Virus record (IMG/VR): IMGVR_UViG_2657245439_000011
Span: 1 to 12,712 of that record
DNA length: 12,712 nt
Strand: one strand, 5' to 3'
Origin: a virus
Lineage: Duplodnaviria; Heunggongvirae; Uroviricota; Caudoviricetes
Each line of letters begins with the position of its first letter. The stretch's first letter is position 1. Shown here piece after piece: positions 1 through 11,280 of the stretch. The notes beneath the pieces were generated by a model. That model did no database searches. It was not told the DNA's origin and was given only the letters and a program-made list of their open reading frames with translations. The translations under genes were made by a program, and so were the position numbers.

Positions 1-241
1 AATCAGAATGATAAAGATTCTCCAAAAAAATCTTCATGGTAACCGTCCCTCTCGAAGGATGTTTTTCAGTATCCGGCTAAAAGGGATGAGGCCATAAGAC
101 ATAACAATTACAGAAGGAGTAACTTTCATTTGTTCCATGTTAACCACTTTTTCAGGGGTCCTTTTATTAGATTATCCTGATTATAAACGAATAATCCATT
201 TACGGAATTTTTGTCTGTAAAATACTACTGTATTCAGGAGT

Positions 242-276
242 AAATGGACGGAGATGTATCATCGCCGTCCATTTTT
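242..276. terminator. Hairpin downstream of nlpC, possible bidirectional intrinsic terminator
   Basis: Stem 242-251 pairs with 265-274 (core atggacgg/ccgtccat), 13-nt loop, T-run on the plus side and A-rich on the other. Lies 8 nt downstream of the nlpC stop (284-286, minus strand). Confidence 0.45.
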
Positions 277-283
277 CGACATA

Positions 284-748
284 CTAGATTCGTCTCGCCT
301 GCCAGAAATTTTTCTGCCAATAAACATTATCGAGTGAGGAACGCATCACTCCCTTGCTGGTAGAGGCGTGGATAAATTGGTTGTTGGTATCATAAATACC
401 TACATGCAAACCATTTTGTCCGGAGCCCGTTTTGAAAAAGACCAGGTCACCAGGCAGCAACTCGTCTTTATCAATTTGCGTGCCGATAGAGGCTTGTTCT
501 TTGGTTTCTCGGGGCAGCTGCAAATCGAAACGATCGCGCATCGTCACAACCACAAACCCCGAACAGTCCACACCGCGCCGCGTCATGCCACCATAACGAT
601 ACGGCGTGCCATGCCAGCTCTGTAGCTGGTCGTTCAAACCGGCAATAACGGTAATCGAATCAGAAAGTCTGGCATTTGGCGGCGGTGCTTTATGGTGGCT
701 ACACCCGGCCAGAAACAGTGCTGTGATCAAAATAAGGCAGAAACGCAT
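284..748 (-). CDS. nlpC: NlpC/P60-family lipoprotein (cell-wall endopeptidase family)
   Basis: 154-aa ORF with ATG at 748. Signal peptide with lipobox LAGC, catalytic-Cys context DCSGFV and His context GLHVGIYD typical of NlpC/P60. Near-identical to my recollection of E. coli NlpC, and in the expected position next to btuD. Confidence 0.95.
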   Translation of the reverse strand: MRFCLILITALFLAGCSHHKAPPPNARLSDSITVIAGLNDQLQSWHGTPYRYGGMTRRGVDCSGFVVVTMRDRFDLQLPRETKEQASIGTQIDKDELLPGDLVFFKTGSGQNGLHVGIYDTNNQFIHASTSKGVMRSSLDNVYWQKNFWQARRI

Positions 749-825
749 TCCGTACGGTTCCTCTGTTTTTTATTCTTGCATTAATTTAGCGTCGTAATTA
801 CCCGATTTTCAAGATACTAATGAAA

Positions 826-1575
826 TCAGATGGTCGAAATCAGCATTCTGTGACCTTCGATATCCAGACGGCGAAAATTCATCCCATAGGCCTGCGCCAG
901 ATTTGGCGGCGTGAGCACCTCTTCCCTGCGTCCACTGGCCAGCATTTTTCCACCTTTTAGCAACCACGCCCGATGCGCATGACGCAATGTATGGTTGAGA
1001 TCGTGACTGCTCATCACAATCGCCAGTCCTTGCTGACACAGCGCGCTCAGAATTTTGTCTAATGCACTTTGTTGCGCAACATCAAGACTGTTCATAGGCT
1101 CATCAAGAAGTAGTAATTGGCCTGCGGGATTGGCTTGTGGTGTGATTTGCAGCACCACCGCAGCAAGACGTACGCGTTGCCATTCGCCGCCGGAAAGTTG
1201 ATTGGTGCTACGTCCGAGTTTGTCATCAAGAGCCAGCGCCCCTGCGACATCATTCAGTAGTTCGGTACGCGTTTTATCGTGCTGATGCAGTGTCAGGTAG
1301 TGCCAGACCGGCATTGCAAACGGCGGCGTCTGCTGTTGTGAAAGATAGGCGCGATGCAGCGCGAGTTTTGTTGCGGACCATGCTTCCAGTGGTTGCCCCG
1401 CGAACTGAATGCTTCCCTTACCGCTGGTCATTCCGGCCATTCGTGCAAGCAAGGTACTCTTACCCGCGCCGTTCGGCCCCACCAGGTGCAGGATCTCCCC
1501 AGCCCGAACCTCGCCAGAAAGCGGCCCCAGGCGGGTAGATTCCGCAACATCCTGTAACTGCATCACAATAGACAT
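826..1575 (-). CDS. btuD: Vitamin B12 ABC importer ATP-binding subunit
   Basis: 249 aa. Walker [13 protein letters not shown] signature LSGGEWQR, Walker B LLLLDEP. Start ATG shares one base with the btuE stop (TAATG), as in E. coli btuE-btuD. Confidence 0.97.
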
Positions 1576-2126
1576 TATTTTGCCAACGCCAGTTTAATGC
1601 TTTCCATCACAATGGGATCTTCCGGCGTCATATCCGGGGAAAAACGCTGGATGACCAATCCGTCCCTGCCAACTAAAAATTTCTCAAAATTCCATAAAAT
1701 ATCATCAGGGTACAGCGGTGCACGACCTTTGCTGACCATACGGGCATAGAATCCGCTCTCTTCCGGCGCGACTGCGGTCGGCGCTGCGGCAATCAATTTT
1801 TGATACAGCGGATGGCGTCCTTCGCCATTAACTTCAATCTTACTGAACATCGGGAACGTCACCCCCCATGTGGTGGTACAGTAAGTTTTAATCTCTTCAT
1901 CGCTGCCCGGTTCTTGTTCCAGAAACTGGTTGCACGGGAATCCCAGCACCACAAAACCACGATCGGCCCAGGCTTTCTGAATATTCTCCAACTGCTCATA
2001 TTGCGGCGTTAAGCCACACTTTGAGGCGACATTGACAATCAACAGCACATTACCGGCGTACTTCTCCAGCGTGGTCACTTCACCGTCGATATCTTTCACT
2101 ACGGTCGTCAGAATGGAATCTTGCAT
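1575..2126 (-). CDS. btuE: Glutathione peroxidase-family protein
   Basis: 183 aa. GPx motifs NVASKCG (peroxidatic Cys), [15 protein letters not shown]. Matches E. coli BtuE as recalled. Confidence 0.97.
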
Positions 2127-2188
2127 CGTTTCTCCTGGGTGTGGTCAGTAAAAATCTTAGCTTTTAATCATAGACCGTCTTTTTGCGG

Positions 2189-3169
2189 CTAACGTCCTGC
2201 TTTTAACAATAACCAGATAAACACCGGCGCACCCAACGTTGCGGTGACCACGCCAATAGGCAGCTCTGCGGCAGCTAATGCCAGGCGCGCTACAATATCG
2301 GCCAGCAGCAATGCGCTCGCCCCTGCCAGCGCGCAGCCGGGAAGTAATACGCGATGATCGGTTAAACCACACAGCCGGAGAATATGGGGGATCACCAGAC
2401 CAATAAAGCCGATAGCACCCGCCAGCGCCACACTGACGCCAACCATCCAGCCGGTCGCTGCCACCAACACATTGCGCCAGAACCACAGGGGTAAACCCAG
2501 TTGCCGCGCCGAGATCTCGCCAAGTGCTAACATATTCATTGGCCTGGACTGACAACAGATCCACAACAACACGGGGATCAATGCCAGCATCAGCCAGCTT
2601 TGCCGCCAGTCTACGCCGCCAAAACCGCCCATCATCCAGTACATCAGCTGACGTAAATCAACAGAGGTGGAAAAGTAGATAGCCCACGTCATTAGTGCGC
2701 TACAGATAATCCCTAATGCAACGCCAGCCAGCAATAACCGACTGGTCGAAAGATGACGACGGGCGAAACGTAAGAGTATTAAAGTGATGATAAGCGCGCC
2801 AGCAATCGCACACAGCCCCAGCGCCCAGTTGGGGAGTTGCCCTTGCCCAAGCAATACCGCGGCGATAAGCCCCACGCCTGCGCCATTAGAGACGCCAAGT
2901 AGTCCAGGTTCTGCCAGAGGATTTTCGAACAACGCCTGCATTACAGCGCCGGATATAGCCAGCGCCGCACCAACCAGCAATACAGCCAGCGTACGTGGCA
3001 GGCGAATTTGCCAGACGAACAGTTCGCCACGAGGAGTAAACCAGTCACCTGGCGAGATCCATTGTTCACCGGCGCAAAGGCTTAAGAGAAGCGCCAGCAG
3101 CATCAAAACTGACAGGCATAATAACCAGCGAATATTTTGTCGCTGTTGTTGGCGGGCAAGTGTCAGCAT
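2189..3169 (-). CDS. btuC: Vitamin B12 ABC importer permease
   Basis: 326 aa, highly hydrophobic polytopic protein, ATG at 3167-3169 (minus). Matches E. coli BtuC as recalled. Confidence 0.97.
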
Positions 3170-3232
3170 GGTATCCGTTCTGCTGAAGTGTCATGGCGTT
3201 GATTTTACGGTGACTCTTCGACAGTGAAAAGA

Positions 3233-3253
3233 AAAAAGGCCGCAGAGCGGCCA
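3233..3253 (-). terminator. Rho-independent terminator (minus-strand sense)
   Basis: Minus strand reads GGCCGC-tct-GCGGCC followed by TTTTTT (plus coordinates: stem 3239-3244 / 3248-3253, A-run 3233-3238). Sits between the element and the btuC start; may be the retained host terminator or the terminator of the int/orf131 transcript. Confidence 0.55.
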
Positions 3254-3358
3254 TAAACACAAACAAAAATCAATAAGTTAGATAATTATCAAAGACTTAC
3301 AGACACACAAAAACACAGCCAACCACAACAAATAACAGGGATGTGGTCACTTTGTGGA

Positions 3359-3754
3359 TCATTCGCTCCCCTCTTTTTCCTTATTTCGTTGAACGCCAAT
3401 TGCGACACACGTACTAAGCAAATCTTTACATTTCTCTACATCTTCAGACTTACGCAATTTGATGCTTTTTACAGACTGCGGGCTACTGTCCGTAGCACGA
3501 TACATCGTTATTTCAATATCATTTCGGTCTAAGAGTCCCATAATGGCTTTTGCAACCTCCACACCCTTCTTCGCGAAATCAAAGAACAGAGCAAGTTTAT
3601 ATGGATTTTCGACGGAAAAAACTTCAATTTTGCTAAAACCAACATCGTGTAGAGAAAAATATTGCTCAACCTCATCTCGAAGTTCTGGATCGCATACAAT
3701 GTCTATTCTCCAGTACTGACCTAAATGCAAATCGCTATTAACTGTTTTTTCCAC
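3359..3754 (-). CDS. Hypothetical protein, AT-rich accessory gene between int and the host junction
   Basis: ORF track gives 3359..3775 from TTG. I prefer the in-frame GTG at 3754-3752, preceded by AAGGAGG (minus strand, plus coordinates 3766-3760) at 5-nt spacing; this SD overlaps the int stop codon. Visibly more AT-rich than int. No recognisable motif and no TM segment. Confidence 0.55.
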   Translation of the reverse strand: MEKTVNSDLHLGQYWRIDIVCDPELRDEVEQYFSLHDVGFSKIEVFSVENPYKLALFFDFAKKGVEVAKAIMGLLDRNDIEITMYRATDSSPQSVKSIKLRKSEDVEKCKDLLSTCVAIGVQRNKEKEGSE

Positions 3755-3764
3755 AACATCCTCC

Positions 3765-4739
3765 TTACCCAGCAATAGGATTAAATCTCACCGCATCCTG
3801 CAAGTAATCCGGCGCAAGATGGGCATAAATCATCGTTGTCTGAATCTTTGCGTGCCCCAGAATTTTCTGGAGCGTCAGAATATTGCCGCCGTTCATCATG
3901 AAATGACTGGCGAAGGTGTGGCGCAGCGCATGAACAGCCTGGCCGTCAGGAACATCAGGTGCGACCGTTTTGATGACATCGCGAACCAATGGATAATCCA
4001 GCGTCGGAAACACCAGTTTCCCGCCCCGTTTTTTGATCTTTTCAAACAGGCTTTCAGAAATAGGAACGGTACGGTTTTTGCTGTTCTTCGTTTTTGAAAA
4101 AGTGATTCGACAATGAAGAACACGGCGCTGCTCCAGTGCCGCTACCTCGCCCCATCGCGCCCCGGTCGACAGAAGGATTTCGACAGCCAGCCGTTCATCG
4201 GGATTTTCAGCCAGTGCATCCAGCAACTGAACACATTCAGACTTACTCAGATATCCCATTTCGCGCTCGTTAACCTTCATTCCTTTAAGGCCTTGAACGG
4301 GGTTATCGTTAAGAAAATGGCCGGATGAGATGAGTGCGGTAAACATCGCGCTTAACGCCCCAATCTCTCGATTAATGGTGCTGGGCTGTATCCCCTGCTC
4401 TATCCTGGACACACGTAGCTCGGTGAGCATCGTTGTATTAAGTTTATGCACACACGGGTCATCCATTGCCTCACTCAAGCGCAGCAATTTAAGGCGCGTG
4501 TTATGCCCTGACTTCATTAGCTGGCCGTGGTATTTCCACCACAAGTCAATAAGCACCGACAGCGGACGGCGATCAATGGAGTTTCCTTTCCACTCATTGT
4601 TATGCTGTTGCGCCAGCACCCACCGCTCATATAAAACTGCATCCGATTTCGTTTTAAATTTTTTGCGAATGCGTTTGCCTTTACGCCCCTCAGGGCGCAT
4701 GTCAAGAAGATACCCTCCCGGAATTGATTTTATGCTCAT
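3765..4739 (-). CDS. int: Tyrosine recombinase, P2-type phage integrase
   Basis: Box I arginine TGARWGE, box II HALRHTFASHF, nucleophile Tyr in TTMIYAHL. N-terminus MSIKSIPGGY...GRKGKRIRKKF resembles P2 Int (recalled MAIKKL...GRNGKRIRRKF). The ORF track start (4889) is rejected in favour of ATG 4739-4737, which matches the family N-terminus and does not overlap the upstream gene. Confidence 0.93.
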   Translation of the reverse strand: MSIKSIPGGYLLDMRPEGRKGKRIRKKFKTKSDAVLYERWVLAQQHNNEWKGNSIDRRPLSVLIDLWWKYHGQLMKSGHNTRLKLLRLSEAMDDPCVHKLNTTMLTELRVSRIEQGIQPSTINREIGALSAMFTALISSGHFLNDNPVQGLKGMKVNEREMGYLSKSECVQLLDALAENPDERLAVEILLSTGARWGEVAALEQRRVLHCRITFSKTKNSKNRTVPISESLFEKIKKRGGKLVFPTLDYPLVRDVIKTVAPDVPDGQAVHALRHTFASHFMMNGGNILTLQKILGHAKIQTTMIYAHLAPDYLQDAVRFNPIAG

Positions 4740-4788
4740 TCGTGAAACCCCAGCGTTACAAGACCACCATGCCCCCAGCGTTCCATGA

Positions 4789-5100
4789 TTAACCGGGCTG
4801 TGTACCAGTCTTGCGGGATTTTTGAGAAGACGATGTGTTTTCTGGCCCATCAGGGGAGAGAGAGGGACTGATCTGCCCAGCAGCCTCATTTGTTTTTCCC
4901 GTCATAAGCCATATAGTGTATTTTTCGAAATCCTTAGAATTAATTACGCGATCAACAACGCTTAAACCAACCTCTCTTTTACCGCTCTCATAATTCTTTA
5001 TAGTTCCGAGATTTATCCCAGTAACATCTGCAAACTCAGCTTGAGTTAACCCTTCACTTTTCCGTATCTCTTTCAGTTTTTTTTCGTACCCACTTGACAT
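4789..5100 (-). CDS. XRE-family helix-turn-helix repressor, P2 C-like immunity repressor
   Basis: 103 aa, ATG 5100-5098 with GGAGA SD. HTH LTQAEFADVTGINLGTIKNYESGKR. C-terminal KYTIWLMTG...GQISPSL resembles P2 C as recalled. Placed upstream of int on the same strand and divergent from the early operon, as in P2. Confidence 0.85.
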   Translation of the reverse strand: MSSGYEKKLKEIRKSEGLTQAEFADVTGINLGTIKNYESGKREVGLSVVDRVINSKDFEKYTIWLMTGKTNEAAGQISPSLSPDGPENTSSSQKSRKTGTQPG

Positions 5101-5110
5101 GGTGGTCTCC

Positions 5111-5155
5111 AGACGACTAAATTAACCCTAAAAGTCGCCTAGAGACGACTTTTAG
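5111..5155. promoter_or_regulatory. Operator-like repeat cluster in the repressor / early-operon switch region
   Basis: Direct repeat AGACGACT at 5111-5118 and 5143-5150. Inverted repeat CTAAAAGTCG (5128-5137) / CGACTTTTAG (5146-5155) with 8-bp spacer. All within the 91-bp gap between the divergent starts at 5100 and 5192. Confidence 0.4.
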
Positions 5156-5191
5156 CAACAAATAACCACAGACTGAACAGGTTATCACATC

Positions 5192-5470
5192 ATGACAAAG
5201 CTCTTGAACACATACGAGCAAGCGGATTTTGAGCGTTTGGCGGCGTTCTACCCATACCGCGATGAGCATGGATTACCGGTACTCGAAGAAAGCCTGAAAG
5301 ATTACGCGAAGCGTACCAATCAAACTGTTAATGCAGTGAAAAGGCAGGCTGACAGAGCAGCCCTTCCCATCAACCAAGAAGAAAAAAACTCAAAACGTAC
5401 AGTAAATCTCTTCGCAATTTTCCTGAAAACCATCAGAAACGCAGAGAAATATGTGCAGATGACAAAATAA
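5192..5470 (+). CDS. Small early protein, possibly a Cox/Apl-like regulator
   Basis: 92 aa, first gene of the early operon, divergent from the repressor (the position of P2 cox / 186 apl). Segment YAKRTNQTVNAVKRQADRAALP loosely resembles the P2 Cox HTH region as recalled. Weak SD. Confidence 0.5.
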   Translation: MTKLLNTYEQADFERLAAFYPYRDEHGLPVLEESLKDYAKRTNQTVNAVKRQADRAALPINQEEKNSKRTVNLFAIFLKTIRNAEKYVQMTK

Positions 5471-5484
5471 CGAGGTGTCATTTT

Positions 5485-5823
5485 ATGCTGAAGCAACGCC
5501 GTAATTTTCGCACCGAAACGGAACGCCAAGCTAACCGTTTCGCTACCAGCGCATCACGCAGCAACATCCGCTACAGCCTGAGCGAGACGCACGCAACGCC
5601 AGATGGCCATACAGTAAAACAAATTGGCGAACACACCTGGCTGATTGAAAAAGCTGGAATCGTGGTTCACAGATGCCAACGCAACCCATTTACCGGAAAC
5701 CGCATTTTTGCTCTGAGCAACGGCGACACTCAGTTTGGACAGGATTTCACATTGTACGAAGCACTTCGCACGGTTGATCGTCTGCTTCGCGGGCAAAGTT
5801 TTATTAAACAGACTGATTTATAA
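5485..5823 (+). CDS. Hypothetical early protein (112 aa)
   Basis: ATG 5485 preceded by GAGGTG SD; begins 14 nt after the previous stop. No recognisable motif. Confidence 0.55.
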   Translation: MLKQRRNFRTETERQANRFATSASRSNIRYSLSETHATPDGHTVKQIGEHTWLIEKAGIVVHRCQRNPFTGNRIFALSNGDTQFGQDFTLYEALRTVDRLLRGQSFIKQTDL

Positions 5824-5833
5824 CAGGTGCGTT

Positions 5834-6112
5834 ATGACCAAAGAGCATGCACAAGGTGTATTTATCCGTTTTATTGATTTTCGCGGTGAACTGTTATTGC
5901 GCGCATCAGCTATTGATGGAGTTGTCCCATCAGAAAAAAATGCAGCTACTTACGTTTATCTGAACGGCACGCGCCTGACCGTAGAACTTCCGTACCAGAC
6001 TGTACACGGAATCATTAGCGAAGCTGAAAAAGCACGTAAGATTAATGGCGATGAACCCTATATCGAAATTATTTGTATGGATTCAGAAGCTGAAATTCAG
6101 AAAGCAGATTAA
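5834..6112 (+). CDS. Hypothetical early protein (92 aa)
   Basis: The ORF track starts at 5735 and overlaps the previous gene; the ATG at 5834 with AGGTG SD, 10 nt after the upstream stop, is the more plausible start. Confidence 0.55.
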   Translation: MTKEHAQGVFIRFIDFRGELLLRASAIDGVVPSEKNAATYVYLNGTRLTVELPYQTVHGIISEAEKARKINGDEPYIEIICMDSEAEIQKAD

Positions 6113-6123
6113 AGGGCGTTGCG

Positions 6124-6366
6124 ATGGGCAAAGAATATAAAACTCTCATTAACAAAGCACTTGAGCGTTTTTATTTTCGCTTAAGTGCATCAGGTGCTCA
6201 TGCTGAACGTGCAGCCCGTGACTCATTGACCAGGGCAATCCGGAGTCTGTATGACGTGGCTTTTTACGCTGATGATCTGGATGCACTTAACGAACTTTCC
6301 GAGCTGATCTGTGCCGCAGAATGCGGGGAGCATATTGAACCGTATAAGCTGGGGAATATTGCATGA
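6124..6366 (+). CDS. Hypothetical early protein (80 aa)
   Basis: ATG 6124; tightly packed in the operon; its stop overlaps the next start as ATGA. Confidence 0.5.
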   Translation: MGKEYKTLINKALERFYFRLSASGAHAERAARDSLTRAIRSLYDVAFYADDLDALNELSELICAAECGEHIEPYKLGNIA

Positions 6367-6476
6367 GTATATTTATCTCATGGCTTGTCCTGATTATTTC
6401 GGTGGTCTGCGCCATTGGGATTATGCAAATTATTCATTCAGTAAAAAAGATTGAACGCATTTTCACTGGCGAATAA
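6363..6476 (+). CDS. Small hydrophobic peptide (37 aa), predicted single-pass membrane peptide
   Basis: Not in the ORF track. ATG 6363 overlaps the stop of the upstream ORF (ATGA). Translation MSIFISWLVLIISVVCAIGIMQIIHSVKKIERIFTGE: a hydrophobic stretch of about 20 residues followed by a basic tail. Confidence 0.35.
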   Translation: MSIFISWLVLIISVVCAIGIMQIIHSVKKIERIFTGE

Positions 6477-6563
6477 CAGCGCAAATAAAAACCCTAGGTT
6501 AAATAAGAAAATGTAAAAACAATCCGCATTCGCGGAGGTATTCGCACACGCCCAGGAGGCGTA

Positions 6564-6767
6564 ATGGCAATTAAGCATTTTCCTGTCGTTCGTTTCACTT
6601 CCAGAGGACGTGAATACGAAGTCGACGAACGCCTGATTACCACAATCGACAAACACCGCTCAGAAAAGGATGCACACCACATCTATCTCACTGACGGTAC
6701 TTACTTCTGCGCCACTAATGTGGCGCGGGTGAATCTTATCCGACAGGTACAGGATCCTCGCAAATGA
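6564..6767 (+). CDS. Hypothetical early protein (67 aa)
   Basis: Strong RBS: AGGAGG at 6554-6559, 4 nt before ATG 6564. Stop overlaps the next start as ATGA. Confidence 0.55.
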   Translation: MAIKHFPVVRFTSRGREYEVDERLITTIDKHRSEKDAHHIYLTDGTYFCATNVARVNLIRQVQDPRK

Positions 6768-6982
6768 GCAGGAGAAGAATCACTCGCAGACATCACCGCA
6801 CACACCTGAATTCCTCAGCAACGCTAAAGGCACTTATTCAAAGCGAGATCGGTGATTTCTTCGCGGGAGTTGGCTCACTAGGTGAACCAGAAACACCAGA
6901 AGCGATGCAGCGTGAGCTCATGATACGCATAGATAACACTTTTGATTTCTTCTACAGCATGCACGGAATTAAACAGAAATGA
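6764..6982 (+). CDS. Hypothetical early protein (72 aa), basic N-terminus
   Basis: ATG 6764 overlaps the upstream TGA (translational coupling). Arg/His-rich N-terminus RRRITRRHHRTH. Confidence 0.45.
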   Translation: MSRRRITRRHHRTHLNSSATLKALIQSEIGDFFAGVGSLGEPETPEAMQRELMIRIDNTFDFFYSMHGIKQK

Positions 6983-7090
6983 ACCTCAAGCCAGCAATAA
7001 CTACTCGTAGAACGCCAATTTCTGTAACCGACCGCTTCTGAGTTTTTTGGCAGGAAGCCTTCGCACATCCTTAGTAGAGAGAATTGCAGC

Positions 7091-7480
7091 ATGATTGACG
7101 CTCATGACTTCACAAGATGGGTGCGCACACAGGACACCCGTCTGGCTCCCATTCTTCGGGGATTATTTGATCTCTACATTCGTGGTCGTGACAACAGAGC
7201 ACGCACCACAAAACCGGAGAATGTGGATACCCTTTATTTCACAGTAGACGACTGCTACCGCGTGGACTTCACACCACACGGACTGGCGTTGCACTGCCTG
7301 ACACCGCACGGCGAATCACTGCTGGCGTATTACGACTCCCCGGCCTCCGTATTTGCGGCAATGCTGGCGCATCGCACTGCTGGCGGGTGTGTCTCGCTGA
7401 GTGAATACACCGCTGAATTTAACCGCCTTTCCACCATCTTCTTGCAGGAGTGGCAGCGCGTGACGGGATACCAGCCATGA
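7091..7480 (+). CDS. Hypothetical early protein (129 aa) immediately upstream of the replication gene
   Basis: ATG 7091; stop TGA 7478-7480 overlaps the ATG (7477) of the replication initiator. Confidence 0.55.
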   Translation: MIDAHDFTRWVRTQDTRLAPILRGLFDLYIRGRDNRARTTKPENVDTLYFTVDDCYRVDFTPHGLALHCLTPHGESLLAYYDSPASVFAAMLAHRTAGGCVSLSEYTAEFNRLSTIFLQEWQRVTGYQP

Positions 7481-10296
7481 GTGAGTTTGCATGGAGCTGG
7501 AATGAACCACGACCAGCCATTGATCCGGCCAGATTTACGGAGCACAGGCAGGAAACTGAAACCGACCTGCAACGCGCCATCCGTTACTACCTTGAGGCAG
7601 ACAAAAAGGCCCTGGAAGAACAGGAAGCGAAGGAGGAAGCCTTTTTCGCACAATCCACCGTGGGTAAAAAACTCATGGCATCCCTTGAGGAAGCCGGACA
7701 GCGTGAAAAGCTGGCACAAAGCATCATCAGCAAGCGTCAGGCAACAGAACAAGACCCGGTGGCCCGTGCTTTTGCCACACTGAAAGTGCTTCCCGTTTAT
7801 CTGCGTGAACCTCTGAGCCGCCACCTCTCTTTCCTGCGCAAAAAACAGGAATCCGATCGTCAGAAAGGCAAAAAGAGCTGGCAGGCTGAACGCTACGCGC
7901 GCGGAAACCTGCGCAAAATATTCGAACGCCTGGAACGCACCGATCACCGCTGGCTGACACCGGGTTATCGCTCCCTTACCGGACGCGAACGCCTGGACGA
8001 TTTGCTTTACCTGCCGCAGCTCAACAAACACCAGATACAGACGCTGGCCACCATGACGGCGGCGATGTTCAGCAGCACCTTCGAAAAACTCTGCGATAGC
8101 TTTGGCGCGACTGATGGCGAGCTGACCATGGATGTAACGCTGAAGGCGTATCAGATGCTGGCCCGCATGGCGTTACACCTGCACGCCATGCCTCCACATT
8201 ATGACGCACTGACAACAGACAAAGACCGGAGGAACGAACCGGACACGGAGCTGCTGCCGGGCGCAATCCTTCGCCTGACCTGTGCGGAATGGTGGAAACG
8301 CAAACTGTGGCTGTTACGTTGCGAGTGGCGGGAAGAACAACTCCGCGCCGCCTGTCTGGTTTCCAGAAAAACATCGCCCTATCTGAGTCAGGACGCATTA
8401 AGCGAGTTTCGCGCGCAGCGCGAGAAAACACGCGATTTCCTGAAAAGTTTCATGCTGGAAAACGAAGACGGGTTCACGATTGATCTCGAGACAGTGTATT
8501 ACGCGGGAGTAAGTAACCCGGTTCACCGTAAGGCAGAAATGATGGCCACCATGAAGGGGCTGGAACTTCTGGCCGAAGCCCGTGGCGACAGAGCGGTGTT
8601 TCTGACTGTCACCTGCCCGTCAAAATACCACGCCACAACAGAGAACGGTCATCCGAATCCCAAATGGAACGGGGCCACCATGCGCGACTCCAGCGATTAC
8701 CTGGTTAACACGTTTTTTGCGGCAGTCCGCAAAAAACTGAACCGCGACGGTCTGCGCTGGTATGGCATCCGCACGGTGGAGCCTCACCATGACGGCACCG
8801 TGCACTGGCATATGATGGTCTTTGCTCATCCGGAAGAAATCGACAGCATCGTGGCCATCACCCGCGATATTGCCATTCAGGAAGACCGCCACGAGCTGGG
8901 CAATGATATTACTCCGCGCTTTAAGGTGGAGTATGTCGACGGCTCAAAAGGCACACCAACCAGCTATATCGCGACCTACATCGGAAAAAACCTGGACAGC
9001 CGCGCCGTGGATGGCATCGACCCGAAAACGGGCAAGCCACGCGTTGACCACGAAACCGGAAAATCAATGGCCGAGAGCGTGGAACGCGCCATCGGCTGGG
9101 CGCGCCTTCACCGGGTTCGCCAGTTCCAGTTCTTTGGTATCCCCTCCCGTCAGGTGTGGCGTGAACTGCGCCGCCTTGCCAGCCAGATGGCACGCAACCC
9201 GGAAGGCCCGCAACGGCTGAAGGATGACGCAATGGATGCGGTACTCGCTGCCGCTGATGCCGGATGTTTTGCCACCTACATTGAAAAACAGGGTGGCGTG
9301 CTTGTTCCACGCAAGGACTACCTGATTCGCACCGCCTACGACCTCGCAGATGAGCTGAACGATTACGGCGAACAGAGCGTACAGATTTACGGGATCTGGT
9401 CACCACTCATCGGGGAATCCTCCCGTGTGTGCACGCATCCGGATAACTGGAAGCTGGTAAGACGTAAACCAGAACCGGAAGACAACGCCCACGAAAATGG
9501 TTTTGACCTTCAGGGCGGCCCTGCCGCCTCTTGGACTCGTGGCAATAACTGTCCCCGTGTACAGGAAACGGACAACAACGGGACAGAACAGCCGGAAGAA
9601 CGGCCAGCACCGTGGCCGCAGCTCCCTGACGGCGTTGAAGTGAACGAATGGGTGCGCTCACTGAAACGGCACGAACGCCGGGCGCTGATGCGTTCGCTTC
9701 GTGACAAACAGGCAAAAAACAGCAGTGATGAAATGCAGAGCTGGACACAGAGCCGCAAACAGCAGCGGCCTTTGCCTGATAACCACGAATTACTCGCTAA
9801 AGAATGGCGGGAGTCTGCTGAATCTCTCGGCCTGCATATCGGTGAACAGCAGATGCAGCACCTGTTACGGGGCGGCAGCCTGTACGTTGACGGCAGCATC
9901 ATTGCACCGCAGGGATATGAAATTGTACGTAAACCGGATACCCGCCCGGACAGCCGAATCACGCAGCTCTGGCAACGCCTGAGCCGTAACCACGGCGTAA
10001 GCAGCACGGAGATCCGCCATAACCCGGTCGCCAGCTATCTGGAACAACTAGGGGCATCAGACCCTGAAGCCGCCGCACGCCTGGCATCCACACTTCAGCA
10101 AGACCAGAACACCATGAAAACACCCGTTACCGTACTTTCTGACATGCTGCGCGCCATCCGCGACGCAGAGCACGAACAGAGAATCAGTGAAACAACTGAA
10201 CGCGCCCGCCGCAAAGCAGACCTGCTGCGGGGTGGCCTGACCAGTGGAAACAAAAAACAGACAAAAACGGGATTTAAAAATCCTGTAACCGATTAA
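7477..10296 (+). CDS. Rolling-circle replication initiator (HUH endonuclease, phage P2 gene A / phiX174 gene A superfamily)
   Basis: HUH motif in GTVHWHMMVF; catalytic tyrosine pair in YIATYIGK (Y-x-x-x-Y-x-x-K). Start taken as ATG 7477 (ATGA overlap with the upstream stop) rather than the track's GTG 7450; 939 aa. Long low-complexity, charged C-terminal region after the catalytic core. Confidence 0.9.
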   Translation: MSEFAWSWNEPRPAIDPARFTEHRQETETDLQRAIRYYLEADKKALEEQEAKEEAFFAQSTVGKKLMASLEEAGQREKLAQSIISKRQATEQDPVARAFATLKVLPVYLREPLSRHLSFLRKKQESDRQKGKKSWQAERYARGNLRKIFERLERTDHRWLTPGYRSLTGRERLDDLLYLPQLNKHQIQTLATMTAAMFSSTFEKLCDSFGATDGELTMDVTLKAYQMLARMALHLHAMPPHYDALTTDKDRRNEPDTELLPGAILRLTCAEWWKRKLWLLRCEWREEQLRAACLVSRKTSPYLSQDALSEFRAQREKTRDFLKSFMLENEDGFTIDLETVYYAGVSNPVHRKAEMMATMKGLELLAEARGDRAVFLTVTCPSKYHATTENGHPNPKWNGATMRDSSDYLVNTFFAAVRKKLNRDGLRWYGIRTVEPHHDGTVHWHMMVFAHPEEIDSIVAITRDIAIQEDRHELGNDITPRFKVEYVDGSKGTPTSYIATYIGKNLDSRAVDGIDPKTGKPRVDHETGKSMAESVERAIGWARLHRVRQFQFFGIPSRQVWRELRRLASQMARNPEGPQRLKDDAMDAVLAAADAGCFATYIEKQGGVLVPRKDYLIRTAYDLADELNDYGEQSVQIYGIWSPLIGESSRVCTHPDNWKLVRRKPEPEDNAHENGFDLQGGPAASWTRGNNCPRVQETDNNGTEQPEERPAPWPQLPDGVEVNEWVRSLKRHERRALMRSLRDKQAKNSSDEMQSWTQSRKQQRPLPDNHELLAKEWRESAESLGLHIGEQQMQHLLRGGSLYVDGSIIAPQGYEIVRKPDTRPDSRITQLWQRLSRNHGVSSTEIRHNPVASYLEQLGASDPEAAARLASTLQQDQNTMKTPVTVLSDMLRAIRDAEHEQRISETTERARRKADLLRGGLTSGNKKQTKTGFKNPVTD

Positions 10297-10320: not shown

Positions 10321-11280
10321 ATGAAAATTTGTATCGACGACGGCTCCACCAACATCAAGCTGGCATGGACTGAGAACGGCGAACACCGCAACGCCATCAG
10401 CCCGAACAGCTTCAAGTCGGAATGGTCTGCGCCGTTCGGTGGCACGCAGCCCGCGAACTACATGCTTGATGGCGTGCGCTATGGTTTTGATCCGGTCAGC
10501 GATCGCTTTGTCCAGACGACCGACACGCAATACCAGTACAGCGATGTGAATGTCATTGCCATTCATCATGCGCTGGTCAAATCAGGCATCACGCCACAGG
10601 AGGTGGATGTGGTTGTCACCCTGCCACTGAGCGAGTATTTCGACACAAACGCACAGCCGGACATGGCCAACATCAACCGCAAAAAAGCGAACGTTATGCG
10701 CCCGGTGGAGTACCAAAACGGCGAGGCATTCACTATCCGTAACGTGCGGGTTATGCCTGAATCCATTCCGGCTGGCTTTAAAGCACTGGCTGACATGAGT
10801 CCGTTTGAATCCCTGCTGATTGTGGATTTGGGCGGAACCACGCTGGATGTGGCAAAGGTTCAGGGGCAACTGGCAGGTATCAGCCAGGTGTTTTGCGATC
10901 CACACGTAGGCGTTTCTCTGATGGCCGATGCCGTGCTGTCGGTGATGGCCACCAACGGTATGCGCACCAGTCACCACATCGCCAATACCATTATCGAACA
11001 TCGCCACGATGAAGCCTGGCTGCGCCAGCACATCCACAATGACGCGCATTACGCCAGCCTGATGGCAGTTATTCGTGAAAAGGAGGAAACACTGAAACAA
11101 CGCGTGATCCGCGCGCTGGCGGTTTTTTCGGGTTACGGGCGGGTGATGGTTGTCGGTGGAGGGGCGGAGATTGTGGCACCCGCTATCCGCGAAGCCTGCG
11201 GAGTTAATGCGACTTTCATCGCGGACGGGGTGCCACAGTTTGCTCTGGTTAATGGGCTGTACGCAATGGACAAGGAGTAA
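10321..11280 (+). CDS. parM: Actin-like segregation ATPase, ParM/StbA family
   Basis: 319 aa. N-terminus MKICIDDGSTNIKLAW (R1 ParM recalled as MLVFIDDGSTNIKLQW). Phosphate-2 motif IVDLGGTTLDV and adenosine motif VMVVGGGAEI. Similarity appears to run the full length. SD AAGGAA upstream. Confidence 0.9.
   Translation: MKICIDDGSTNIKLAWTENGEHRNAISPNSFKSEWSAPFGGTQPANYMLDGVRYGFDPVSDRFVQTTDTQYQYSDVNVIAIHHALVKSGITPQEVDVVVTLPLSEYFDTNAQPDMANINRKKANVMRPVEYQNGEAFTIRNVRVMPESIPAGFKALADMSPFESLLIVDLGGTTLDVAKVQGQLAGISQVFCDPHVGVSLMADAVLSVMATNGMRTSHHIANTIIEHRHDEAWLRQHIHNDAHYASLMAVIREKEETLKQRVIRALAVFSGYGRVMVVGGGAEIVAPAIREACGVNATFIADGVPQFALVNGLYAMDKE

Follow-up and report, generated by a model that had tools for sequence, protein, structure and literature searches.

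Seven conserved early-operon genes between the cox-like gene and rep of a P88-like, P2-family prophage of Escherichia coli

Seven same-strand open reading frames (ORFs) occupy positions 5485-7480 of the 12,712-nt stretch of DNA analyzed here (the window), between a Cox-like gene and a rep gene of the Phage_GPA family, and belong as genuine, conserved genes to the early operon of a P88-like prophage (P2 family) that is common in E. coli. The ORFs, named by the length of their products (o112, o92, o80, o37, o67, o72 and o129), fall, as sequence comparison resolves them, into three modules: a five-gene core (o112 to o67), a variable cargo slot, filled by o72, and a 129-aa gene that is coupled to rep (Table 1). 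These early genes are ordinary phage accessory content, and not a new kind of system. The comparison behind this division covered 78 loci, in which the core and the variable slots were located, and the contents of the slots were named by Pfam, PHROG and Rfam.

Table 1. Positions of the seven ORFs, the two gaps and the flanking features in the window.
Feature	Position	Strand	Evidence or remark
Promoter-like site TTGACA-18-TAAATT	5094..5123	+	10/12 matches; upstream of cox-like gene
Cox-like first early gene, 92 aa, outside the seven-ORF set	5192..5470	+	phrog_11533 E 1e-56; phrog_575 E 4e-5
o112, DUF4761, 112 aa, first core gene	5485-5823	+	Pfam 220.6 bits vs gathering cut-off 27
o92, phrog_3800, 92 aa from ATG	5834-6112	+	phrog_3800 E 5e-57
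o80, DUF4754, 80 aa	6124-6366	+	PF15946 E 3e-54, 181.7 bits vs gathering cut-off 27
o37, predicted single-pass membrane peptide, 37 aa	6363-6476	+	Hydropathy; ATGA-coupled to o80
Gap 1, conserved non-coding spacer	6477-6563	.	Insertion slot A at its 3' end (about 6550-6554), empty here
o67, phrog_3459, 67 aa, last core gene	6564-6767	+	phrog_3459 E 3e-45
o72, short allele of Ead/Ea22-like phrog_4144, 72 aa	6764-6982	+	phrog_4144 E 2.5e-21, positions 34-97
Gap 2	6983-7090	.	6983-7048 architecture-specific; 7049-7090 conserved leader of o129
o129, phrog_3237, 129 aa	7091-7480	+	phrog_3237 E 4e-58; ATGA-coupled to rep
Divergent N-terminal segment of rep, first ~107 codons	7477..7797	+	Co-varies with upstream gene type

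The number, sizes and location of the ORFs, as well as the ATGA stop-start overlaps at 6363, 6764 and 7477, had been noted in a preliminary description of this DNA and were all confirmed by inspection of the sequence, in which the two gaps are likewise present as described. The first four genes are separated by spacers of 10-14 nt and Shine-Dalgarno-like motifs precede most starts, with a strong AGGAGG ribosome-binding site before o67. An alternative TTG start at 5735 would extend o92 to 125 aa, and rep starts with the ATG at 7477 (Pfam Phage_GPA, E 3e-130). In codon-aware comparisons, homologues were found and the frames proved to be conserved as coding (dN/dS 0.01-0.24, stops kept), every frame and stop being retained across 86 related loci. 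The dN/dS values are 0.20 for o112, 0.22 for o92, 0.24 for o37, 0.13 for o67 and 0.19 for o129; the value of 0.009 for o80 is biased, since the loci were ranked by their identity to this very gene, and for o72 a pN/pS of 0.24 was obtained against the Salmonella allele. These substitution patterns indicate that each of the seven ORFs encodes a protein and is subject to purifying selection. The gene preceding them, which matches phrog_575, a family of Cox-like excisionases/repressors, has a dN/dS of 0.13. As the promoter-like site upstream of it corresponds in position to Pe of P2, between C and cox, it is probably the early promoter Pe that would drive cox, the seven ORFs and rep. Folding did not detect significant RNA structure around the coupled start codons, and scans for terminators and promoters yielded no enrichment over shuffled sequences.

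The window originates from an E. coli chromosome with an integrated P88-like prophage (genus Xuanwuvirus, family Peduoviridae). The complete P2-type prophage that contains the region adjoins btuC. Identity of the region is 100% with E. coli chromosomes and 88-93% with the isolated phages P88, Chuche and PhiR44_2. At least part of the stretch is matched by 1383 of 5426 complete E. coli genomes (about a quarter), O26:H11 EHEC included, so that the seven genes must be considered very widespread. A C-type repressor (a divergent C-like HTH protein with 38% identity to P2 C), a Cox-type first gene and a terminal A-type initiator on the same strand place the operon in the P2 family, and P2-type structural genes follow downstream in the same prophage. 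Within this family, the Xuanwuvirus core early cassette is represented by its five genes in unchanged order and with high identity. P88 (gp04-gp08, gp10, gp15, rep) presents DUF4761, phrog_3800, DUF4754, the 37-aa membrane protein, phrog_3459, the slot, phrog_3237 and rep in the order found here, with protein identities of 78-100%, and Chuche has an identical seven-gene arrangement. P88 itself carries additional cargo between its 67-aa gene and rep, namely a wHTH/MarR-like gene, a full-length Ead/Ea22-like gene, a membrane protein, an SPFH lipoprotein, isrK/C4 RNAs and a derepression protein. The early operon of P2 (cox, orf78, B, orf80-83, A) shares the divergent C/Cox switch, the small same-strand ORFs and the terminal A-type rolling-circle initiator, whereas homologues of orf78, B, orf80, orf81 and orf82 are absent here.

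Each of the two gaps marks the edge of a variable insertion slot. In relatives, slot A is occupied by genes of phrog_9338 or phrog_21900, and gap 2 is an empty site at which most relatives carry an isrK-like RNA, a C4 antisense RNA and a derepression protein. This arrangement resembles the immI-type module of P1/P7, in which a C4 antisense RNA controls an antirepressor, and Salmonella IsrK; the module is absent from the window and bears only on the interpretation of the gap. It also corrects an annotation, as the "205-aa hypothetical protein" of the relatives is actually an IsrK/C4 antisense-RNA locus. The earlier suggestion that the gaps could hold internal promoters or small RNAs was not borne out, as neither an Rfam RNA, nor significant structure, nor a promoter-like site was detected in them: no Rfam match with E <= 1 lies inside 5485-7480, and the fold z-scores are -0.8 (plus strand) and -1.8 (minus strand) for gap 1 and +0.65 and +0.82 for gap 2. 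The minus strand of gap 1 contains a terminator-like hairpin with a 5-bp stem and no partner promoter. Slot B contains o72 as its sole cargo in the window, which modifies the initial view of the interval: its genes are indeed tightly coupled early-operon genes, but o72 represents cargo of a variable slot and not part of the conserved core. The protein is a clear member of phrog_4144 that covers only the C-terminal two thirds of the family and has a differing, basic N-terminus. It does not match the corresponding Pfam family (PF13935, Ead/Ea22), and P88 gp10, which belongs to the same phage family, itself stays below the cut-off of this model (20.5 vs 27 bits). Judged by its sequence, o72 is probably a functional short Ead/Ea22-like allele outside the conserved set.

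The gene before rep, o129, is probably a remote homologue and positional counterpart of P2 Orf83 (DUF5405). An hhalign comparison of the o129 family with DUF5405 covers nearly the whole of the latter (probability 74%, E 2.7e-5) and represents the only strong pair among 112 profile-profile family comparisons. The native score of 35.5 compares with 7 for the reversed and at most 30 for the block-shuffled controls, one of which reached 30. Most of the signal is contributed by the subfamily of P88 gp15, a 121-aa protein of the same PHROG that can be aligned with o129 end to end, and the o129 subfamily alone yields an E of 0.011. Structure prediction with AF2, whose models reached a moderate mean pLDDT of 71-73 from shallow input alignments, suggests for o129 two N-terminal helices followed by a beta4-alpha-alpha domain (residues 48-129, pLDDT 80-91). 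Used as the Foldseek query, this model had a DUF5405 protein as its second-ranked match, with a TM of 0.68 on the target, a probability of 1.0 and an E of 0.04. The position agrees as well, since o129 lies directly upstream of rep and overlaps it by ATGA, and P2 Orf83 overlaps A; a two-helix N-terminal segment of about 45 aa distinguishes o129 from its P2 counterpart. A weaker match links o129 to P2 Orf81 (E 6.6e-4), and apart from these two pairs the tblastn searches and the 112 profile-profile comparisons with P2 and 186 early proteins were negative. The Pfam DUF5405 HMM does not match o129 at E <= 0.1, and the protein is therefore not filed as a Pfam member. The original statement that the sizes of the ORFs do not match P2 orf78-83 remains valid, but o129 probably does correspond to Orf83. 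In phage 186, the record marks the DUF5405 gene as "not essential". Homologues of o129 are named inositol monophosphatase at NCBI, an assignment that was rejected because o129 lacks a match to such a family in Pfam or NCBIfam, is 129 aa long compared to about 260 aa, and is predicted to adopt a beta4-alpha-alpha fold; the name looks like a propagated error. The "ORF83" anti-Avs protein of a preprint is unrelated to P2 Orf83. No paralogy within the cassette was found between the o129 family and the families of o112 or o72, and a species-level genome scan with o129 returned two loci only.

The variation of o129 is shared with rep. The phrog_3237 gene exists as two alleles that are about 25% identical, and between the two types the N-terminal segment of Rep has an identity of only 16-26%, compared with 96-100% for the remainder of Rep; from 7798 onwards, the DNA is again homologous to that of the other type. 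The type of the upstream gene and the type of the Rep N-terminus are fully linked (23/23 and 55/55), although complete linkage is expected for any contiguous divergent block of about 700 bp and alone is no proof of an interaction. On this comparative evidence, o129 and the first ~100 residues of Rep swap as one block, of which P88 carries the other allele. With 939 aa, Rep is also longer than P2 A (761 aa), and its N-terminal ~100 residues, variable among relatives, have no counterpart in P2 A. If the cassette reflects a physical partnership, it would hint at a role for the conserved gene before A in P2-family phages.

The five core genes are retained in nearly all relatives examined. The model of o112 comprises a basic N-terminus (residues ~1-27, low confidence) and a beta5-alpha core (~30-105). 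The o92 protein is acidic (pI 5.0), occurs in Xuanwuvirus-type phages only and has no match in Pfam, NCBIfam or PDB. The product of o80 is likely helical and 100% identical in eight of 14 phage records, one Citrobacter phage included, while the neighboring proteins vary (78-98%); 40 distinct DNA alleles of o80 encode almost only one protein (pS 0.109, pN 0.001, from the same biased set). Residues 3-21 of o37 have a mean Kyte-Doolittle hydropathy of 2.81, and the P88 record annotates its counterpart as a membrane protein. The o67 family is restricted to 16 representative clusters among 1.84 billion proteins, and phrog_19053 represents a fusion of the o67 domain with the wHTH gene that lies downstream in relatives. 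A 1016-aa repeat protein matches o67 in five stretches; its Pfam matches are all sub-threshold.

The seven proteins had been described as lacking any recognizable motif, and searches of all of them against Pfam, PHROGs, NCBIfam and PADLOC returned only DUF families or families of unknown function. The PADLOC defense profiles gave a single sub-significant match (E 0.012), PDB sequence searches with o112, o129, o92, o80, o67 and the DUF5405 profile returned nothing significant, and nothing functional was found in the literature on DUF4761, DUF4754, DUF5405 and Xuanwuvirus. The best functional analogy, for both the core genes and the coupling of o129 to rep, is provided by phage 186 (apl, cII, fil, dhr, non-essential ORFs, orf84, A), in which host-directed small early proteins are followed by several non-essential ORFs: Fil inhibits cell division, Dhr inhibits the replication of the host and, according to the 186 record, A appears to be translated only if translation proceeds to the end of orf84. 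Unlike in the present operon, orf84 is located between the DUF5405 gene and A, and neither sequence nor profile comparison linked the proteins of this interval to fil, dhr, cII, gp32-34 or orf84. We favor, with a probability of roughly 70%, the interpretation of the interval as the middle of the P88-like early lytic operon, including its three modules, translational coupling and accessory roles. By analogy with P2, the operon would start at Pe and be repressed by C in the lysogen. Its genes would be co-transcribed and translated in sequence via coupling, and o129 might either work together with the N-terminal extension of Rep or merely deliver ribosomes to a weak rep start. The core proteins would represent small accessory factors that act during lytic growth on the host or on the DNA metabolism of the phage, and neither virion nor lysis components.

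An alternative to these accessory roles, raised in the preliminary description, is that at least one of the small proteins is an anti-defense factor, such as one that inhibits restriction or an abortive-infection system, and is produced early to shield the phage DNA on entry or during replication. The position in an early operon, the small size of the proteins, the taxonomically narrow families and the fast turnover of the adjacent slots fit this idea, and the extreme conservation of o80 would fit the binding of a conserved host protein. It is nevertheless considered unlikely: known anti-defense genes are usually located at variable positions, whereas the five genes keep their place throughout the genus; the scans of Pfam, PHROGs, NCBIfam and PADLOC gave no match to a characterized family; and, with a lowest pI of 5.0, the proteins do not include a strongly acidic DNA mimic. 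Moreover, a large survey identified recognizable anti-defense genes in only 28 P2-like prophages (PMC13586616).

Another possibility is that one core protein takes the place of P2 B as an accessory factor in replication. P2 B is a DnaB-interacting protein that is needed for lagging-strand synthesis, and neither tblastn nor profile searches matched B in the window or the 88 related loci. A P2 B homologue is missing from P88-like loci, a 42.5-kb stretch of a close relative among them, and so is, in the same search, a homologue of any other P2/186 early protein; these loci use a P2 A-type Rep nevertheless, and genes present in nearly every relative fill the interval from cox to A that houses B in P2. 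However, B is not universal in the P2 family, being absent from 186 too, and 186 replicates without a B-type loader (its gene B is a late activator according to the 186 record), so that a loader is not obligatory for the A-type Rep family. The possibility that the ORFs match known replication accessory proteins was checked for P2 B and other helicase loaders, and no match emerged from sequence or profile-profile searches, nor from the comparison of the o112 and o129 models with loader or helicase-binding folds in the PDB. Rep, about 180 aa longer than P2 A, could itself carry an extra function, and a replacement of B is regarded as decidedly unlikely. It can also be speculated that the core forms a coordinated host-takeover module restricted to P88-like phages, whose nearly invariant DUF4754 protein, together with its coupled membrane peptide, would act on a highly conserved machinery of the host, and that the DUF5405-like protein would confer specificity as the partner of the variable Rep N-terminus, so that one genus would contain two incompatible types of replication initiation; this more elaborate scenario appears distinctly improbable.

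Finally, it is highly improbable that o37 and o72 are not genes and merely arose as frames by chance or through decay, even though RefSeq, which annotates the other six ORFs as CDS, lists the 72-aa ORF as a partial pseudogene (6845-6982, "incomplete; missing N-terminus"), o72 spans only part of phrog_4144 and its dN/dS within E. coli is 0.49 (from just four alleles): the frame and stop of o37 are kept in 77 loci, the start of o72 sits at the conserved ATGA junction with o67, and a Salmonella prophage has the same short form with the basic N-terminus (pS 0.49, pN 0.12, in both halves). For the annotation of these prophages, the 72-aa "pseudogene" would accordingly be recorded as a gene under selection and the 129-aa "inositol monophosphatase" as misnamed and probably the counterpart of P2 Orf83.

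The early region between the cox-like gene and rep, the gene of the Phage_GPA replication initiator, is modular in organisation, and all seven small ORFs in it (o112 to o129, named by their length in amino acids) are genes, including o72, which RefSeq labels a partial pseudogene. The coordinates and sizes of these ORFs, their three ATGA overlaps and the two gaps, as laid out in the preliminary description, were all exactly confirmed on the sequence. Conservation in related elements, which it had proposed as a check, was borne out as well: throughout the collected loci (80 from IMG/VR, two from genomes and three from phage records with the region), every frame is open and ends at the identical stop. 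Nei-Gojobori dN/dS values for distinct alleles lie well below 1, at 0.20 for o112, 0.22 for o92, 0.24 for o37, 0.13 for o67 and 0.19 for o129, with 0.13 for each of the reference genes cox and rep; the value for o80, 0.009, is biased because the loci had been ranked by identity to its protein. For o72, E. coli alleles are few, and comparison with the allele of a Salmonella prophage gave a pS of 0.49 and a pN of 0.12, with similar values in its basic N-terminal third and its conserved C-terminal part, which speaks against the pseudogene label. Open frames, shared stops, low dN/dS and the o72 comparison together establish all seven as genes.

Features of the window and of related loci (L numbers); window features are listed in their order on the sequence
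Sequence	Feature	Position	Strand	Assignment or remark
window	nlpC-btuD-btuE-btuC region	1-3300		E. coli
window	P2-family prophage	from ~3360 onward		
window	138-aa ORF	3359-3775	minus	prophage start
window	integrase		minus	prophage start
window	C-type HTH repressor		minus	prophage start
window	Cox-like gene		plus	
window	o112	5485-5823	plus	DUF4761
window	o92	5834-6112	plus	phrog_3800
window	o80	6124-6366	plus	DUF4754
window	o37	6363-6476	plus	37-aa membrane peptide
window	gap 1	6477-6563		
window	slot A	~6550-6554		empty
window	o67	6564-6767	plus	phrog_3459
window	o72	6764-6982	plus	
window	gap 2	6983-7090		
window	o129	7091-7480	plus	
window	rep	ATG at 7477	plus	939 aa, Phage_GPA
window	ParM	10321-11280	plus	
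L005	slot A gene	6446-6862		
L011	slot A gene	3328-3645		
L002	phrog_1130 + phrog_200 pair	3884-4914		slot B
L086	phrog_1130 + phrog_200 pair	4297-5327		slot B
L078	phrog_1130 + phrog_200 pair	4938-5768		slot B
L004	IsrK/C4/Derepression stretch	4357-4854		slot B
L002	IsrK/C4/Derepression stretch	5028-5512		slot B
L005	IsrK/C4/Derepression stretch	7717-7914		slot B
L010, L011, L012, L016, L036, L085, L086	IsrK/C4/Derepression stretch			slot B
L087	P2 Orf81	3247-3549		

Clustering of the ORFs from the DUF4761 gene to rep in 78 loci gave a fixed order: o112, o92, o80, o37, slot A, o67, slot B, the phrog_3237 gene (o129 in the window) and rep. Slot A directly precedes the o67 ribosome-binding site and holds, in relatives, a gene of phrog_9338 (122-155 aa) or phrog_21900 (105 aa). 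Slot B is very variable, its contents including a MarR-like wHTH, an Ead/Ea22-like protein (phrog_4144, 99-104 aa), a D5-like regulator, and a small membrane protein with an SPFH/Band-7 lipoprotein. The window, phage Chuche and eight other loci share a minimal architecture in which slot B contains o72 alone, a short phrog_4144 allele with a different, basic N-terminus. At the DNA level, 6401-6770 and 7049 onward form conserved blocks, and 6771-7048 is particular to the architecture of the window. Hotspot surveys published on P2-like phages deal with other variable loci rather than with these slots of the early operon. In slot B of several relatives, though not in the window, the genes of a 67-aa membrane protein (phrog_1130) and a 276-aa SPFH/Band-7 lipoprotein (phrog_200) are ATGA-coupled, and the two products could serve in lysogenic conversion or exclusion. 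A further family, phrog_19053 (246 positions), joins o67 (positions 84-135) to the downstream MarR-like wHTH (positions 162-243); it could stem from gene calls that read through or shift frame at the ATGA junction of the two genes, or be a real fusion hinting at a functional link.

Both gaps are edges of the variable slots. They had been proposed as possible sites of internal promoters or small RNAs. In the window sequence neither contains an Rfam family (E <= 1), a promoter-like site or an unusually stable RNA fold; the small-RNA proposal is wrong here, yet it marks the site of two sRNA genes in most relatives. In most loci, the '205-aa ORF' of slot B, in the stretch that leads up to the phrog_3237 gene, really consists of an isrK-like RNA (RF01394, 60-67 bits) and a C4 antisense RNA (RF01695, 76-87 bits); next comes a 76-aa protein of the Derepression family (PF25738). 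Both RNA scores exceed the Rfam gathering scores in P88-like relatives, and the '205-aa hypothetical protein' annotated in PhiR44_2 is almost certainly spurious. The set resembles the antisense-controlled antirepressor module of P1 immI, here placed inside a P2-type early operon; the window lacks it, and gap 2 is its empty site.

The last of the seven genes, o129, and P88 gp15 (121 aa) each hit phrog_3237 (E about 1e-55) and can be aligned with each other end to end at ~25% identity. In an AlphaFold2 model of o129 built from an alignment of 15 sequences, residues 48-129 form a C-terminal domain of four antiparallel strands and two helices (pLDDT 80-91), preceded by two helices of lower confidence. 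A Foldseek search of this model against predicted viral structures placed a DUF5405 protein second; the alignment covered all 99 residues of that protein, with TM 0.68 on the target, a probability of 1.0 and E 0.04. According to phage records, P2 Orf83, whose gene overlaps the start of P2 A, and 186 gp31 both belong to DUF5405. Profile-profile comparison of phrog_3237 with 14 diverse DUF5405 sequences gave a probability of 74% (E 2.7e-5), spanning o129 residues 50-127 and positions 5-89 of the 93 DUF5405 columns; the native score was 35.5, compared with 7 for the reversed profile, at most 30 for 25 block shuffles and 10-16 for unrelated families of the locus. When eight window families were compared with 14 early families of P2 and 186, no other pair fell below E 1e-4. 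Most of the signal is contributed by the gp15 subfamily; o129 by itself reaches E 0.011 in the same register, and it falls outside DUF5405 by Pfam's own criterion. Together, profile and model suggest, with a probability of roughly three in four, that o129 is related to P2 Orf83 but divergent from it and extended at the N-terminus. The earlier statement that the ORF sizes do not match P2 orf78-83 is true of size only and probably misses this relationship. The strand-helix-helix portion of the o129/gp15 family is also matched, weakly, by the profile of P2 Orf81 (E 6.6e-4), and the two share the pattern 'SVI(A/G)IYQ ... C'; by sequence, Orf81, Orf83 and phrog_3237 may be distant paralogues. The name 'inositol monophosphatase', carried by the o129 subfamily in NCBI and UniRef (proteins P0001-P0009), has no supporting Pfam or NCBIfam model, the predicted fold being a small beta4-alpha-alpha domain, and looks like a propagated annotation error.

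The phrog_3237 gene and the N-terminal extension of Rep are exchanged together as one unit. Beyond about residue 110, Rep shows 96-100% identity among loci, and its first ~100 residues occur as two types that share only 16-26% identity, DNA homology between them restarting at window position 7798. The o129 allele accompanies the window-type N-terminus in 23/23 loci and the gp15 allele the other type in 55/55, and in either group Rep residues 151-450 share ~97% identity with the window. Since the divergent block is contiguous, this linkage alone is no proof of an interaction between o129 and Rep. At the junction, the o129 allele overlaps rep by ATGA and the gp15 allele ends 6 nt before it; a strong Shine-Dalgarno sequence is missing from both rep starts. 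According to its record, phage 186 apparently cannot translate A unless orf84, the gene before it, has been translated to its end, and on this precedent we infer coupling between o129 and rep.

The other five conserved genes encode proteins that, as first described, carry no recognised motif: their families are DUFs or PHROGs of unknown function only, and o92, o80 and o67 match nothing beyond these, nor any PDB entry. Only 16 representative relatives of o67 were found among 1.84 billion proteins. By hydropathy, o37 is a single-pass membrane peptide. The core domain of o112 (68 aa) also follows cox in Salmonella phage SEN5, beside a Fil-like cell-division inhibitor. In an unbiased set of 14 phage records, the o80 protein is 100% identical in eight, including a Citrobacter phage, and flanking genes show 78-98% identity; it is likewise 100% identical in at least 80 IMG/VR contigs at ~11% synonymous diversity, its neighbours being much more variable. 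Such constraint on o80 is stronger than is usual for a small early phage protein. By analogy with Fil, Dhr and the non-essential early ORFs of phage 186, the core proteins would be accessory and directed at the host or at DNA metabolism. The early genes would be co-transcribed from Pe, a putative early promoter upstream of the cox-like gene, and translated sequentially by coupling, and o129 may act with Rep or in its translation. That one or more of these small proteins is an anti-defence factor, as might be expected of an early operon, is unlikely; none of the core proteins is a strongly acidic DNA mimic. Still less probable is a core protein that substitutes functionally for P2 B. Sequence and profile comparison revealed no resemblance of the five proteins to any P2 or 186 early protein, and no P88-like locus has a homologue of P2 B, orf78-82, fil, dhr or cII.

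The initial observation is correct but ordinary, as the genes are already catalogued (DUF4761, DUF4754, five PHROGs of unknown function and RefSeq CDS) and occur in a named phage genus, Xuanwuvirus, and in many E. coli genomes; a literature search on their function found nothing. The new points are modest: the probable Orf83 relationship and cassette behaviour of o129, the evidence that o72 is functional, and the nature of gap 2. At least a partial match to the region is present in 1383 of 5426 complete E. coli genomes. Several E. coli chromosomes are 100% identical over the 2.5 kb around the seven ORFs; in O26:H11 strain 11368 (99.9%) this stretch occupies one end of a P2-type prophage, which has a typical P2-type complement of head, tail and lysis genes. 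Among isolated phages, Chuche, PhiR44_2, P88 and further Xuanwuvirus members are the closest. The 138-aa ORF between integrase and btuC has a low GC content (~0.40) and matched nothing in NCBIfam or PADLOC; it sits at the int-att position, a reported cargo or defence hotspot in P2-like prophages. The prophage also encodes ParM, and the adjacent gene in close relatives is annotated as a plasmid partitioning/stability protein. An E. coli record deposited as a plasmid (NZ_CP148288.1; its 34.4 kb are close to the genome length of P88-like phages) matched 84% of a 2-kb query; from such sequences, integrase-carrying P88-like phages may also persist as plasmids, or an excised circle may have been assembled. 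Finally, a 226-kb contig labelled 'Vagococcus sp. WN89Y' (L085, NZ_JBQPOM010000071.1) contains this enterobacterial prophage region, its proteins sharing 82-98% identity with those of the window; contamination or a mislabelled assembly is the likely explanation.
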